Assembly (NCBI RefSeq): GCF_009931435.1
Contig: NZ_CP043414.1
Length of the DNA: 64,000 bases
Origin: Escherichia coli
Lineage (GTDB): Bacteria; Pseudomonadota; Gammaproteobacteria; Enterobacterales; Enterobacteriaceae
Direction: 5' to 3' (one strand)
Shown: in pieces, positions 54,001 to 60,000 of the stretch
How positions within the stretch are numbered: position 1 is the first letter of the stretch
Layout of the letters: each line of letters starts with the position of its first letter
Position numbers: made by a program

Positions 54001-57000
54001 TTCATTAAGTAGTTTTTCACCGGAATGACCGAAAGGAGGATTTCCGATGTCATGCGCCAGAGCTGCCAGTTCAACCACCACCGGGTTAACCAGTTTGAGG
54101 TCTGACGCGATACTTCGGGCGATCTGAGCAACCTCAAGACTGTGCGTTAATCTGTTTCTGTTGAATTTTTCAGGATCAATTTCAAAAAGTTGCATCTTTC
54201 CCTGCAGCCTGCGAAATGATGATGAATACAGAATACGCGCATAATCCCGTTGATAATTATCCCGGCTTCTTGTTTCACCATCGGGGGACGGGTGCTCTCT
54301 GGTATCAGCAAGCGCACTGATAAGTTTTTGTTCCTGCTCTTGCGCAAATTCTTTTAATTCATTGCAGTACATATTTCTTCCTTTCTGGAGCATGTTACCA
54401 AATCAGAATACCGGATGAACAAAACTGGTGGCTACATCCTGTAGGGATTATGTATTAGTAAGCTCTGGCCATTAGTGCCATTTCAGGTTATGTGATCCTA
54501 CTCACGTAATATGGACACAGGCCTAAGTGAGGTTCTGGTTTTCAAATTGTTCCGGACTGAGGCCGCCACACCAACTGTGCCGCCGCCACCGATTGTAATC
54601 ACATTCGATATAATTAAACACCGTTGCCCGCATTATTTCCCGGCTGATAAAGTGTTCTCCATGGATACATTCCACTTTCAGCGAATGAAAGAAGCTTTCC
54701 ACGCAGGCATTATCGTAGCAGCAACCTTTTGCGCTCATACTTCCACGCAGATTATGCCGCTTCAGTTGCGCCTGATAATCTGCTGAACAGTACTGGCCTC
54801 CACGGTCCGTGTGAACGATAACGTTCCGGGGCCTCTTACGCCGCCACAGCGCCATCTGCAGGGCATCGCAGGCCAGTTGCGCCGTCATGCGTGGCGACAT
54901 TGACCAGCCAATAACGGCACGTGACCACAGGTCAATGACCACTGCCAGATACAGCCAGCCTTCATCTGTACGTAAGTACGTGATGTCTCCTGCCCACTTC
55001 TGGTTCGGGCCACTGGCGTAAAAATCCTGCTCCAACAGATTTTCTGACACAGGCAGGCCGTGTGCGCGGTAGCTGACCGGGCTGAACTTCCGGGAGGCCT
55101 TTGCCCTCAGTCCCTGACGGAGCAGGCTTGCCGCCACGGTTTTTACGTTAAAGGGGTAACCCTGAGCACGCAGTTCATCCGTCAGGCGTGGGGCACCGTA
55201 ACGCTGTTTTGACCGGGTAAAAGCCGCGAGGACAACGCTGTCGCAGTGTTGGCGGAACTGCTGACGCGTGCTTATCCTTGTCCGCCGCTGACACCACGTA
55301 TACCAGCCGCTGCGGGCCACCCGGAGCACGCGGCACATTGCTTTGATGCTGAACTCAGCCTGATGTTTTTCAATAAAGACATACTTCATTTCAGACGATT
55401 CGCAAAGTATGTCGCGGCCTTTTGGAGGATAGCCAGTTCCTCTGCCTGCTCCGCCAGTTGCCGCTTCAGGCGGGCATTTTCAGCGGCCAGTTCACTTTCA
55501 CGATCTGACGAACTCATTTGTTGCTGCAGTTTGCTGCGCCACGCATAGAGCTGTGATTCATACAGGCTGAGTTCACGGGCTGCGGCAGCAACACCGATGC
55601 GTTCAGCAAGTTTCAGGGCTTCACTGAGAAATTCAGGCGAATGCTGTTTACGGGGTTTTTACTGGTTGATACTGTTTTTGTCATGTGAGTCACCTCTGAC
55701 TGAGAGTTTACTCACTTAGCCGCGTGTCCACTATTGCTGGGTAAGATCAAGTCTTACTTACCCTGTGAACCATGTTGATATTGATACTATATTGACTATA
55801 TGCCATACAGGTGGTAATGATTAGTTACTACCATACAGGAAAAGGTAGAAAATGACTCTTTTGGTAACGGCTGAGTGTGTTGACGATCTGATAAACGATG
55901 TTCATCAAGCTATCCTAGCGGATGGACTCAGTAACGATCCTACAAAAGGATCAACTCTAGAGATTCTTGGTGCCTATCTTGTCCTTACCGACCCCCGCCG
56001 AAGAATAAGTAGAACAGAATCCCGAGGAAAACTAATTAGTTGCTTAGGTGAATTTCTGTGGTATCTCTCAGCTCAGAACGATCTTGAGTTTATAAAACAC
56101 TTCATACCACGTTACGCTGAATCCGCTGAGTCAGATGGGAAAATACATGGTGGTTACGGGCCACGGTTGTTTAATATGCGTGGTTTATATAATCAGCTAA
56201 AAAATGTCATCAACCTTTTGCAGGAGAAAAAACCTACCAGACGTGCAGTAATACAGCTTTTCGATGCCTCAGACTTGGTGCCCTCAAAAACTGAACAGCG
56301 AGAATACGTAGATATTCCTTGTACAATATCTATGCAGTTTATTGTCAGATGTGAAGAGCTGCATCTATTTGTTTGTATGCGTTCTAACGATGCCTTTATG
56401 GGGCTGCCTCATGATGTATTTGCGTTCACGATGCTACAGGAATTAGTTGCCCGCTTGATAGGATGCGAATTGGGTCACTATCATCACTTTGTATCCAGCC
56501 TACATCTCTATAAAAATGATTTAGAAAAAGTGAAGGCTCTTCAGAAAGAGGGGTTCATGAGCACCCTACCAGTCATGGGATCGATGCCTGAAATGCATTC
56601 CTTAGATGATATCTTACCCCTGCTTGAGGCAGAAAAAGCTCTTCGAGAGAATAAGGAATTTGATATTGACACTACTTCCTTGAATGACTACTGGAAGGAT
56701 TTATTGCGTATATTAAAAATCCACTTTTTGTTACGTTCACATACACCCAACCACAAAGGACTAGCCTTCCAAGAGTTGGCTGCAATGAAAAATCAGGAAT
56801 ATCGGTTTATTTTTGAAGGAAGACTACAATGAAAAGACATAATCAAATCAGTCAGCTGGTTAGTAATTTGCAAAATTTTAGCCGCAATGAACACAACCTA
56901 AATGGTCTAAGTTCTCCTGCCTGCTTTGATGTTTTAGCCTGTCAGATTATCGACAGTATACGTCGTATACGCTATGTGGAAACTCTTGCATTACGGACCG

Positions 57001-60000
57001 ATTATATGACTCCGTTACGAAAAGAGCCGAATTCTGATGTTTTTGATCCTCTCCGCGCTGCCTGCCTTTATCTTCGTGACAACAATTACGATGAAGCCTG
57101 CTGGCTGGTTTTCCTTGCCACACATTTCGGCAAGAGTAACAAAACCGGCTGGATTTTGTGTCGAGATATATACAGTGGACTCGGTACACAAACGTGGACA
57201 TGGGATACGATAACTGATGACTTTGCTGCTTTTGAACAATGGTTCGCCAGCGTCTCTGATGAGTTGACAGCTAACAGTAGCCTAAGACAATATGGTAACC
57301 ATCGGAAATATGAAACGAAGAAATATCACTCTCGTCGTTCAATACCTGCGGTTTTTCGCTCTTACATCGGATTCATTGGTGCTACACACAGTCATGAGGC
57401 TAGGTTTGCAGAGGCCAAGAGCTTTTCATCTTCACCAGAATCTTTATTCGAACTATTGTATTCAGGGCTAAATGCCGTGATCTCATTTGGACGAACCGCA
57501 AAATTTGATTACCTAACTATGCTCAAGAAAACGGGACTTCTGGATGTAGAGCCGGGTCATGCTTTTCTGAATGGAGCAACCGGGCCCCTTCAAGGAAGCC
57601 GGCTACTTTTCAGCAATAGCCGGACTGCTGGTGACACAATAGACGTATTGAATGAAAAACTAGCTGACCTTGCGGCAATTATTCCTGCACCCTACTTGAG
57701 AATGCAGGTTATTGAAGATGCGTTGTGCAACTGGCAGAAATCACCTGACCGTTATGTCTATTTCGGCGGCTGATATCAGACGATATCTTCTTTACGGAAT
57801 CTCACTTTAAACCGATTAAGGTGAGAAAAAGGTATATTACCTTCATGCTGCAAATATCCCAGTACGATCCCTTTGGATACCCCCATTTTCCTAGCTAACC
57901 GGATGATCTCTTTCCAATGCCGGACACCATAGCGACTAAGTTGCTGCCGGTATTCTTCTGGGATAAGAACATCAACGGCAAATTTATCTGCTTCCTTTTC
58001 CTCTTCCGACGAAAGACTATCTTTACCTTCTACGCGAACTCGGACAGCTTCATGCAAGATGAGATGCCCAATCTCATGAAACAGCGTAAACCAAAAATGG
58101 TCATCGGTCAGATAACGGAAACTCATGACTAGGGTTGCGCGATCTGGTGTAAAAAAGCAGGTAGCACCACTTGCCCGACATCCCTTTGGCGTTGGCAACA
58201 CAACGAGAGAAACTCCAGCAGTGGCGAGAAGGTCGCGAATGTAAGGGATAAAAATCCTCATGTCGGGTTCATTTGTAGCTTTGCGCAGTTCTGGCAACAA
58301 TGCTATCAGCACCTCTTTATCCCATACAGCACAGTTTTGGTTTGAGGTAAGTTGTGCAGCCCTAGTCAGCCACACCAAATCGGCCATAGGCTCGGTTGCC
58401 AGATTAAGAGATTTACGAAAAGCGACCAAAGGAGCATCTGACTGAATTTTATAAAAAAAATCATTGACGGAATTTATTCCGAAAAACGATAGGCAGTGCT
58501 GGAATTTACTTTCCCGAGTTGTAGTTTTGGGGATCCAACCAAACTCCATCATATCACGTACAGGCAATGATTCGAGCCAATCATTATTCACTTTCTCGAG
58601 GTATCCAATTTGCTGGCGATAAGCGACTTCGCGCTTGATCCAGAAGTCTGTCGATACGTTGAATAACTCCTCAAGCTTACAAGCCAGAGACTCATTGAGT
58701 CGGATTTTTCCTTCAAGAAGTTGCTGACCCCGGATAAGAGACAATCCAATCCTCTTACTCAGTTCTTCACCAGAAAGCCCATGTTCATCCATTAGATCTA
58801 TAATTGTATCACCGGGTGGAGATACCCAGTCAGGCTGGAAGTCCTGCGTAACTATCATTTCACGTCACCTATGAACACTAACCGTATCCGGCTAACTCGG
58901 GACCAGTTAATTGTATTATCTTGATTTTTGGGCTGAACTGTATTCCCACAGACAAATCCCATTTTTACATCACCGAGAATGGTAATTGTAATACACTCTT
59001 CCCCATCCTCAAAGCAGACCTCCGGCGAACCTACGGGCAACAGTAAAATGTTGTCTGTCACGGAAAGATCGGAAAGTCGCGAGCGTAGTCTTGATGCCAC
59101 TTTGTCACCAAAGATCTCATTTGCCTCATGCATACTCTCGCAAATAGTCCTTAACTTCTTGCTTTGAAAGGTAATGAACAAAATTATCCACTTTTATTTT
59201 TCTTGGTTGCTACGTTTATAGCAAACTCAACGCTCATTCACAAAATGAGATGTAGCGAATTAATGGACTCTGCACATATTAAATGTTAATGATGGACTTA
59301 AAATCACGGATTCGTAAGGGAAACATGAAAGGTAAACATCAAGACACTAAAGCCCTGTCTGACGTGCTAGCGGAAATGCAACGGCAGGATGCCAAATGGG
59401 GGGCAGACCGTAATCAAGATCCTTTTATCTGGGGAGCGATTCTCGGAGAAGAGGTGGGAGAATTTCATCAGGCTGTCCTCCATGATCGTTTTGGTGGTAA
59501 AGCAGCCGGTACCAGTAGGGAGGAAGCAGTACAAATTGCTGCTGTTGCACTGCAAATCATCGAATATTATGATCGCGTAATAGATTGATAAATTAGAATT
59601 AATCAACTAAGAGTCTTTTACACGCGAAGATGAACTCTGGCAGCCATCTACCTTCGTGGGCCTGTAGAACACATCTAATTGCAATACTCCCAGTTAATCA
59701 CTAACCAGCCTCTCCAGTAAGGCTGGTCGATTAGGTTTAATTAAACAGATATAACAAGCAATTCACTTGGTATTACGCGGTTCACACAGACTTCTTTAGT
59801 TGTGTCATATCCTATAACTTTCAGAGGCTTATTTACGGTATTATCACGAACGGTGCAAAAGTGGCTCTTCCGCAACCTAGGTGGAGATTTTCATGCCAGT
59901 GGACTCATTACCCTCTGCCTAAGTAGTTCAAATCCGGCTCGACCATACATCAGACGTTTCAGCATCTTCAGGCGATTTACATGACCTTCGACAACACCGT

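Follow-up and report, generated by a model that had tools for sequence, protein, structure and literature searches.

Two overlapping genes in a 64,000-nucleotide stretch of Escherichia coli DNA (contig NZ_CP043414.1 of assembly GCF_009931435.1; hereafter the window), here called open reading frame (ORF) A and ORF B, belong to a mobile, conserved unit of four genes arranged as two convergent two-gene operons (Table 1), and this cassette of about 3.4 kb is probably an antiviral system. ORF A resembles thymidylate synthase (TS) and is predicted to hydroxymethylate dCMP, ORF B is a relative of the amino-acid:DNA transferases (AADTs) of phages, and the opposing operon encodes an Xre-M78 peptidase fusion and a small HigB-fold protein. 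The system thus departs from the phage paradigm of DNA hypermodification in being cytosine-type, kinase-less, cellular and putatively gated by a toxin-antitoxin-like module. A first-pass annotation of the window had singled out the pair as a candidate two-gene defence module. ORF A and ORF B do lie where it placed them and are joined by an ATGA overlap, and their Pfam matches (Thymidylat_synt, 6e-25; aGPT-Pplase3, PF18746, 5.5e-90) identify them as real genes rather than chance ORFs. The two-gene description has to be given up, because four genes are conserved, including the convergent Xre-M78 peptidase and the HigB-fold protein; the toxin/antitoxin-like pair listed among the neighbours is indeed present, not as a bystander but as a conserved part of the cassette.

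Table 1. Coordinates of the cassette, of neighbouring features in the window and of an insert gene in related loci
Feature	Position	Strand	Remarks
Candidate sigma-70 promoter of the ORF A-ORF B operon	55792..55821	+	TTGACT-N18-AATGAT; consensus match only
ORF A, WP_000174035.1	55852..56832	+	326 aa; thymidylate-synthase fold; predicted 5-hydroxymethyl-dCMP synthase
ATGA overlap, ORF A stop/ORF B start	56829..56832	+	Read from the sequence
ORF B, WP_000820616.1	56829..57773	+	314 aa; aGPT-Pplase clade 3/amino-acid:DNA-transferase superfamily; HhH-glycosylase-like fold; conserved Cys
Xre-HTH + Peptidase_M78 (ImmA/IrrE-type) protein	57776..58858	-	360 aa; convergent with ORF B, 2-bp gap between stops
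HigB/RelE-fold protein	58855..59181	-	108 aa; TTG start; 4-bp overlap with the M78 gene
'MazG-like' gene	59325..59588 (longest ORF from 59283)	+	Divergent from the HigB-fold gene; name from RefSeq only
Type I restriction R subunit, annotated DEAD/DEAH helicase	61012->64000	+	Runs off the window end
dGTPase, anti-phage	53140..54393	-	PADLOC 1.4e-109; NCBIfam antiphage_dGTPase 1.4e-84, below its cut-off
190-aa hypothetical protein after the dGTPase	52470-53042	-	Hydrophobic by eye; no family match
phrog_4887-family inserts	L040:6839-7144, L050:6773-7135, L054:2781-3092, L055:6850-7152

Scanning one genome per species gave 172 confirmed loci, 80 of them analysed. These loci are distributed over Alpha-, Beta- and Gammaproteobacteria, Bacteroidota, Planctomycetota, Chloroflexota, Actinomycetota, Acidobacteriota, Verrucomicrobiota and Myxococcota (at least eight phyla overall). 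The TS-like gene stands upstream of the ORF B homologue and on the same strand in 77 of the 80 loci, the convergent M78 gene is likewise present in 77, and the HigB-fold gene was found by profile in 75, all five misses being contig ends or a decayed locus. The M78 and HigB-fold genes accompany the TS-like/ORF B pair in about 96% of the species-level loci, and the misses of cassette genes are altogether contig ends or two decayed loci; locus L032, which lacks the TS-like gene, and locus L072, which lacks the M78 gene, were considered for alternative partners and are both decayed copies. Around divergent ORF B homologues in Vibrio cholerae, Bradyrhizobium and a metagenome, a TS-like gene and an aGPT-Pplase3 gene are followed by a Peptidase_M78 gene (about 361 aa) transcribed towards them, itself preceded by a gene of about 106-110 aa. 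The same arrangement is found in Salmonella, Shewanella and Providencia, in all 23 matches in IMG/VR and on 10 plasmids. Within E. coli, a 2.2-kb stretch is present in full length at 99.9-100% identity in 229 of 5,426 complete genomes (about 4%), where the copies are annotated as 'thymidylate synthase', 'hypothetical protein' (or aGPT-Pplase clade 3 protein) and 'XRE family regulator'.

The junctions within the cassette are tight. The TS-like gene directly abuts the ORF B homologue in 45 loci, among which the 4-bp overlap recurs in 14 and a 1-bp overlap occurs in 3; in the window, a Shine-Dalgarno-like stretch, GAAGGAAG, lies just 5′ of the ATGA. The hexamers of the candidate promoter upstream of ORF A, together with about 100 bp around them, are kept upstream of orthologues in Enterobacter, an IMG/VR contig and Providencia. 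At the convergent junction, the stop codons of the ORF B and M78 genes overlap in 36 of 77 loci and are no more than 10 bp apart in another 33, leaving no room for a terminator, so that the convergent transcripts must overlap. No terminator was found at this junction in the window, and promoter-like matches were not enriched. At positions 57771-57778 and at the equivalent sites of the 77 loci, overlapping antisense transcripts are thus implied, and transcriptional interference may have a part in control.

ORF A is a TS homologue whose specificity is predicted to differ from that of TS. All NCBIfam TS equivalog models score it below their cut-offs (the best at 81.4 bits against 327; TIGR03284 at 60.9 against 108), and its closest solved relative in the PDB is the CMP 5-hydroxymethylase MilA (1.6e-41, nearly full length), ordinary TSs following at 1e-18 or weaker. 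The C-terminal extension of ORF A resembles that of MilA, and identity to the phage enzymes is 33% or less. Cys157, Glu67, His218 and Tyr220 correspond to ThyA C146, Glu58, His207 and Tyr209, and these core equivalents are kept in 73-78 of 78 aligned relatives (34-79% identity to ORF A) collected across other genomes, the Cys in 77; the catalytic context IPCT..MQF, on which the first-pass annotation had relied, is present around Cys157. In this alignment the numbering of the ThyA reference fell right on C146, R166, S167, D169 and N177.

The substrate of this enzyme can be predicted from published residue rules. The equivalent of ThyA Asn177 is Asp in cytosine-specific enzymes, and Ser167 with Arg126′ marks deoxyribose-specific enzymes, while the ribo-specific MilA and BcmA have Ala and Lys (PMC5175136). 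At the position of ThyA-143, methylases have a bulky hydrophobic residue where hydroxymethylases have Asp/Glu, and a D169N change is the mark of the newly described 5-hydroxy-dCMP synthases (PMC13326640). ORF A has Asp188, Asp154, Asp180, Ser178 and Arg130 at the equivalents of 177, 143, 169, 167 and 126, respectively. Throughout the family, position 177 is Asp (78/78), 143 is Asp/Glu (69/78), 169 is Asp (77/78), 167 is Ser (77/78) and 126 is Arg (70/78) or Lys (6/78), whereas all dUMP-type references, namely PaMx11 gp51, the enzyme of the defence system DS-4 and E. coli ThyA, have Asn at 177. Because the specificity residues match the published rules family-wide, ORF A is predicted with reasonable confidence to convert dCMP and methylene-tetrahydrofolate to 5-hydroxymethyl-dCMP (5hm-dCMP). 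It is not the housekeeping ThyA, as had been argued from its locus: besides the equivalog scores, the residues for dUMP binding and methylation are replaced by Asp188 and Asp154. The earlier suggestion of a dUMP/dCMP hydroxymethylase agrees with the hydroxymethylase signature, which is of the dCMP and not the dUMP type. A CMP (ribo) hydroxymethylase of the MilA/BcmA kind was also rejected, the protein having Ser178/Arg130 and not Ala176/Lys133′.

ORF B is a member of aGPT-Pplase clade 3, in the AADT superfamily. Its match to PF18746 runs over residues 34-313 and model positions 4-278 of 279, and the guess of an aGPT-pyrophosphorylase as partner had therefore named the correct family; Pfam ADDT (PF18724) also matches, at 1.1e-58. 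The protein has an all-alpha fold like that of the helix-hairpin-helix (HhH) DNA glycosylases, nearest to a characterised AADT. Both the aGPT-Pplase family and the glycosylase-like fold of its members are known from computational prediction, and clades 1 and 2 have been shown to act after the 5-hydroxymethyluracil (5-hmU) DNA kinase in phage thymidine hypermodification (PMC8989533). The ORF B family comprises 3,903 matches of uniform length (about 311-316 aa) and strong conservation, and its proteins are basic. The invariant motifs include FDP, DEAxWLxFL..HFGK, GNHRKYE, SFGRTAKFDYLTM, ATGP and EDALCNWQK. E296, D297 and C300 are invariant in 117 sequences and align to E243, T244 and the catalytic C247 of gp46, in an hhalign match that is weak (E 0.041). 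ORF B had no match in PADLOC, NCBIfam or PHROGs, and a tblastn search with it over 50,697 phage genomes gave none either.

The opposing operon has the look of a control arm. Its Xre-M78 protein carries Pfam HTH_3 at residues 21-73 and Peptidase_M78 at 237-332, with HEIGH at residue 261, and HExxH is present in all 76 relatives. It matches PADLOC PD-Lambda-2_B at 3.3e-30 over residues 15-341 (model positions 60-378 of 402) and, more weakly, RosmerTA RmrA and CBASS CapP. The HigB-fold protein gave no match in Pfam, PADLOC (including PD-Lambda-2_A) or NCBIfam. An AF2 model of it (pLDDT 94.3) brings up Proteus vulgaris HigB as the top Foldseek match (TM 0.63-0.73, probability 1.0), followed by YoeB, RelE, ParE and YafQ; the C-terminal end of HigB is absent from the cassette's family. 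In the RefSeq annotation of an identical genome there is no coding sequence between the XRE regulator and the MazG-like gene, and annotation-based screens consequently see only part of the cassette. PD-lambda-2 (Vassallo et al. 2022) is an experimentally validated abortive-infection system, in which A is HigB-like and B is an Xre-peptidase fusion; B is toxic alone and neutralised by A, and a third component is needed for defence (PMC9519451). No PADLOC match to this third component, PD-Lambda-2_C (P4-antitoxin-like), was found among the cassette proteins, and by analogy the control arm would resemble the A/B pair of PD-lambda-2, with the TS-like/AADT operon in the third position. The two upstream regions of the window contain no inverted repeat of at least 8 bp.

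From the directly observed family memberships, residue signatures, fold matches, conserved architecture and mobility, we infer as follows what the enzymes make, what ORF B acts on, how the cassette is regulated and what part it plays against viruses. An antiviral function is suggested by the linkage of the four genes, the PD-Lambda-2_B match, the HigB fold, the defence context, the DefensePredictor score of ORF A and the validated system DS-4. Our favoured interpretation, held tentatively, is an inducible effector, in which ORF A makes 5hm-dC nucleotides, ORF B turns 5-hydroxymethylcytosine (5hmC) in DNA into an adduct or a lesion, and the HigB-fold/Xre-M78 pair gates both. To judge from its residue signature, ORF A would use methylene-tetrahydrofolate to hydroxymethylate dCMP. 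ORF B, as a base-flipping enzyme of glycosylase fold, might attack C6 of a 5-substituted pyrimidine with its invariant Cys300; its proposed substrate, by analogy with gp46, is 5hmC in replicating DNA, which would end as a bulky adduct, a covalent complex or a lesion. The HigB-fold/Xre-M78 pair, as a sensor/regulator or a toxin-antitoxin, would keep this effector silent until infection or DNA damage, following the logic of PD-lambda-2, ImmA/ImmR, IrrE/DdrO and CapP/CapH. Phage DNA, and possibly host DNA, would then be poisoned in a defence of the abortive-infection type. More speculatively, a phage-encoded deoxynucleoside monophosphate (dNMP) kinase might load hm-dC into DNA and so make the poison specific to infection.

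Several points weigh against this interpretation. The weakest link is the entry of 5hm-dC into DNA without kinases, because these are absent in more than 100 loci while phages need both. No dNMP kinase or 5-hydroxymethyl DNA kinase was found among the conserved neighbours in the 80 genome and 23 viral-contig loci, where an orphan family of about 265 aa and the phrog_4887 family of about 100 aa are all that recurs besides the cassette genes. By textbook T4 genetics, E. coli itself is not known to phosphorylate hm-dCMP efficiently. Assays of incorporation in vivo co-express the cognate kinase (PMC13326640). How the hydroxyl leaves without a kinase is a further weak point; of the two phage kinases, one loads the modified nucleotide into DNA and the other activates the hydroxymethyl as a leaving group (PMC8989533). 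The idea of a simple transplant of the phage hypermodification pathway is accordingly abandoned, both the 5-hmU DNA kinase and the dNMP kinase being absent from every locus examined. In addition, PADLOC has no match for ORF A, ORF B or the HigB-fold protein, and a crude test over 64 loci gave no sign of an operator shared by the two promoter regions (longest shared k-mers of 7.69, against 7.54 in shuffled sequences).

A doubtful but more far-reaching form of the antiviral interpretation is that a phage hypermodification toolkit has been domesticated as an immune effector. On infection, 5hm-dC nucleotides would be made and possibly loaded into DNA by a dNMP kinase of the phage; a clade-3 AADT, kinase-independent and directed to cytosine, would then turn the incorporated 5hmC into a lethal adduct or lesion, under the gate of the HigB-fold/Xre-M78 protease switch. 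If so, ORF B would be the first cytosine-specific member of the AADTs, the pathway would be the first cellular one for pyrimidine hypermodification, and enzymatic mis-modification of invader DNA would be a new principle of defence.

Sabotage of the nucleotide pool, somewhat unlikely in our estimation, would fit the missing kinases. ORF A would divert dCMP to 5hm-dCMP, which host kinases could not re-phosphorylate, and ORF B would act on the free nucleotide, so that a deoxycytidine sink starves the phage in parallel to the dCTP-deaminase and dGTPase defences. Precedents for the second step, in which ORF B would for instance cleave or derivatise 5hm-dCMP, are MilB, which acts after MilA, and DUF2419/QNG1, which acts on queuosine monophosphate. 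In Enterobacterales, the dCMP could come from dCTP through the MazG-like protein, in the manner of T4 gp56 and gp42. Yet the closest structural relative of ORF B and all characterised members of its family act on DNA, and the basic character of the family also tells against a free nucleotide as substrate. ORF B would moreover be needless if hm-dCMP were already a dead end, and still it is universally conserved. In E. coli, dCMP lies off the main de novo route to dCTP, so a dCMP sink without a dCTPase would be weak, and the MazG-like gene occurs in 6 loci only and lacks Pfam support.

Hypermodification of cytosine in self DNA or in the DNA of the mobile element, as protection from restriction or as a self mark, is distinctly less probable. 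Cytosines would be partly replaced or decorated, in a cellular setting that parallels phage hypermodification or the Dpd 7-deazaguanine islands, and the Xre-M78/HigB pair would serve as regulator or as an addiction module. The enzymes belong to families known from the hypermodification of phage DNA, and the cassette resides on islands, plasmids and prophage-like contigs; Iyer et al. in 2013 are said to have originally read clade 3 in this way. The reading nevertheless meets the same kinase problem as the inducible effector, and constitutive genome-wide hmC would expose E. coli DNA to the cell's own McrBC-type enzymes. Furthermore, no conserved modification-dependent or modification-sensitive nuclease adjoins the cassette in the neighbourhoods examined that could be its cognate partner, and the HigB/Xre-M78 pairing is more like that of abortive-infection defence than that of a housekeeping regulator.

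That the cassette makes a small molecule unrelated to phages, such as an antimetabolite or a signal derived from 5-hydroxymethylcytosine as in mildiomycin or bacimethrin, is very improbable. MilA, the best solved relative of ORF A, does come from an antibiotic pathway, but ORF A has the deoxyribose markers Ser178/Arg130 in place of Ala/Lys, no further genes for tailoring, export or resistance are conserved, and there are only four genes, paired with a toxin-antitoxin-like module in mobile contexts of the defence type. A chance adjacency of a HigB/HigA-like toxin-antitoxin pair and a nucleotide-metabolism pair, which in E. coli alone look like separate operons on opposite strands, deserves next to no credence and is excluded, since about 96% of 80 loci, spread over at least eight phyla, hold both pairs in one order and orientation, with 3′ ends overlapping or within 10 bp in 69 of 77.

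Parts of the system were already known, since Pfam names clade 3 and DefensePredictor gives the gene of ORF A (WP_000174035.1) a mean log-odds of 7.6 and classes it as a 'predicted novel defense gene' (PMC13092281); the cassette, for which a distinct system had been suggested, is to that extent not entirely new. The same study (Science 2026) shows predicted aGPT-Pplase systems, of which its Fig. S12A may depict this cassette, stating that the domains lack experimental validation, and validates DS-4 as a defence system in E. coli, consisting of a TS, a dNMP kinase, a 5-hmdU DNA kinase, TIR and NMAD (PMC13092281). Our literature search, outside which Iyer et al. (2013) and Burroughs et al. (2015) fell, turned up no description of the cassette as a whole, of its predicted specificity for cytosine or of the missing kinases.

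Compared with thymidine hypermodification in phages (PaMx11 gp51/gp46, M6 and ViI), where a dUMP hydroxymethylase and an AADT go together with a dNMP kinase and a 5-hmU DNA kinase, the cassette is cellular and lacks both kinases, and it alone is coupled to a HigB-fold/Xre-M78 pair. PaMx11 gp51 has the uracil-type Asn at ThyA-177 where ORF A of the cassette has the cytosine-type Asp, and the cassette AADT falls in a clade separate from gp46, with Asp297 where gp46 has Thr244. With T4 gp42 and other 5hm-dCMP synthases, ORF A shares the Cys nucleophile, Asp-177, the acidic residue at 143, Asp-169 and the Ser/Arg deoxyribose markers; its sequence is nevertheless nearer to MilA than to the phage enzymes, and the cassette is without the dCTPase, kinase and glucosyltransferases of T4. 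The cytosine-specifying Asp and the acidic equivalent of ThyA-143 are shared with MilA and BcmA too, which differ in their sugar markers and in the MilB-type glycosidase or antibiotic cluster that is missing at the cassette. DS-4 is likewise a bacterial defence system with a hydroxymethylase-type enzyme of the TS fold and an acidic ThyA-143 equivalent, but its TS is of the uracil type (Asn-177), it has both kinases and a TIR effector, and it includes neither an AADT nor an M78/HigB pair. On the side of control, the small gene of the cassette, whose product has a HigB-type fold, lies immediately 5′ of an Xre-HTH + M78 fusion, in the arrangement of PD-lambda-2 and the related Xre-peptidase modules (RosmerTA RmrA, CapH/CapP and ImmR/ImmA). 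The cassette differs from PD-lambda-2 in that its small protein has no match to the A model, there is no C component, and a TS-like/AADT operon is invariably attached to the pair.

Should the cassette prove antiviral, it would represent a new effector logic, in which enzymes that hide phage DNA are turned against phages, and it would offer a natural 5hm-dCMP synthase together with a kinase-independent enzyme that modifies 5-substituted cytosine, with possible use in 5hmC labelling or sequencing. If it is not, it would still be the first non-viral pathway making 5hm-dC outside antibiotic clusters. It is also a test bed for infection sensing by HigB-fold/Xre-M78 modules, here wired to an enzymatically readable output, and experiments are immediately feasible because the cassette is compact and widespread (about 4% of complete E. 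coli genomes and at least 172 species-level genomes).

The surroundings of the cassette are a typical context of mobile defence cargo. The selC-associated island postulated by the first-pass annotation was confirmed in a genome identical over the cassette, where about 44 kb extend from setC to tRNA-Sec (selC) and an integrase adjoins; the window does not include selC. The other neighbours fared unequally. The type I restriction gene proved to be the start of a RefSeq type I restriction-modification system, and in the matching genome the R subunit is followed by the M and S subunits, an AAA ATPase and then an ISEcp1-blaCTX-M-15 insertion in the same selC island. The dGTPase-family gene is there but is unrelated to the cassette: it is not conserved with it and was rejected as a component, being a separate known defence gene. 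The MazG-like gene is annotated by RefSeq and its ORF has an LGEEVGEF motif, and no match was found in Pfam, NCBIfam or the PDB. It occupies the same position only in 6 Enterobacterales loci and was therefore rejected as a core component and is regarded as a lineage-specific accessory of doubtful membership; by analogy with T4, where gp56 feeds gp42, its product could be a dCTP pyrophosphatase feeding ORF A. Elsewhere the cassette neighbours an integrase and type I restriction-modification genes (Providencia), Shedu (Bradyrhizobium) or HipA (Vibrio), and in Shewanella it sits inside a P4-like element.

An additional gene of about 265 aa lies between the TS-like and aGPT-Pplase3 genes in 26 loci, or about a third of the cassettes. 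Its family has 2,870 homologues, every one 'hypothetical', and no match in Pfam, NCBIfam, PHROG or the PDB. The members in L006 (5192-6004) and in 27 further loci, among them L013, L014, L022 and L024, carry the motifs ATLGLNPS, CHLDLxPYAT, LILNG and NHNxQSSFGV. A uracil-DNA glycosylase-like identity, considered for LGLNPS and NHNxQSSFG, was supported neither by Pfam, NCBIfam, PHROGs and the PDB nor by hhalign against E. coli MUG. The extra insert of about 100 aa (phrog_4887; MAVYVDNxRIxWRGxxWCHLxAD...YPHYDIT) occurs in 4 cassettes. In several taxa a separate small Xre-type HTH gene (61-73 aa), possibly for an additional regulator, adjoins the cassette (L002:8651-8836, L003:8651-8860, L006:8596-8817 and L092:8723-8944), either beyond the HigB-fold gene or directly 5′ of the TS-like gene.

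In the window, an IS3 copy (about 54460-55749; transposase 54523-55684, annotated as frameshifted) separates the dGTPase gene from the cassette. Its right end, at about 55749, lies about 100 bp 5′ of ORF A and spares the conserved promoter-like region, and the junction between IS3 and the cassette is common to all the best E. coli matches. Farther upstream, window positions 1-36600 are core genome from dgoD to setC, and about 36900-52100 hold CP4-57-like cargo, comprising a rhuM fragment, a CbtA/YeeU toxin-antitoxin, an antirestriction protein, DUF932 and JAB proteins, a GTPase, an inovirus Gp2-family protein, a ProQ/FinO pseudogene and an H-NS-like protein (51619-52053).

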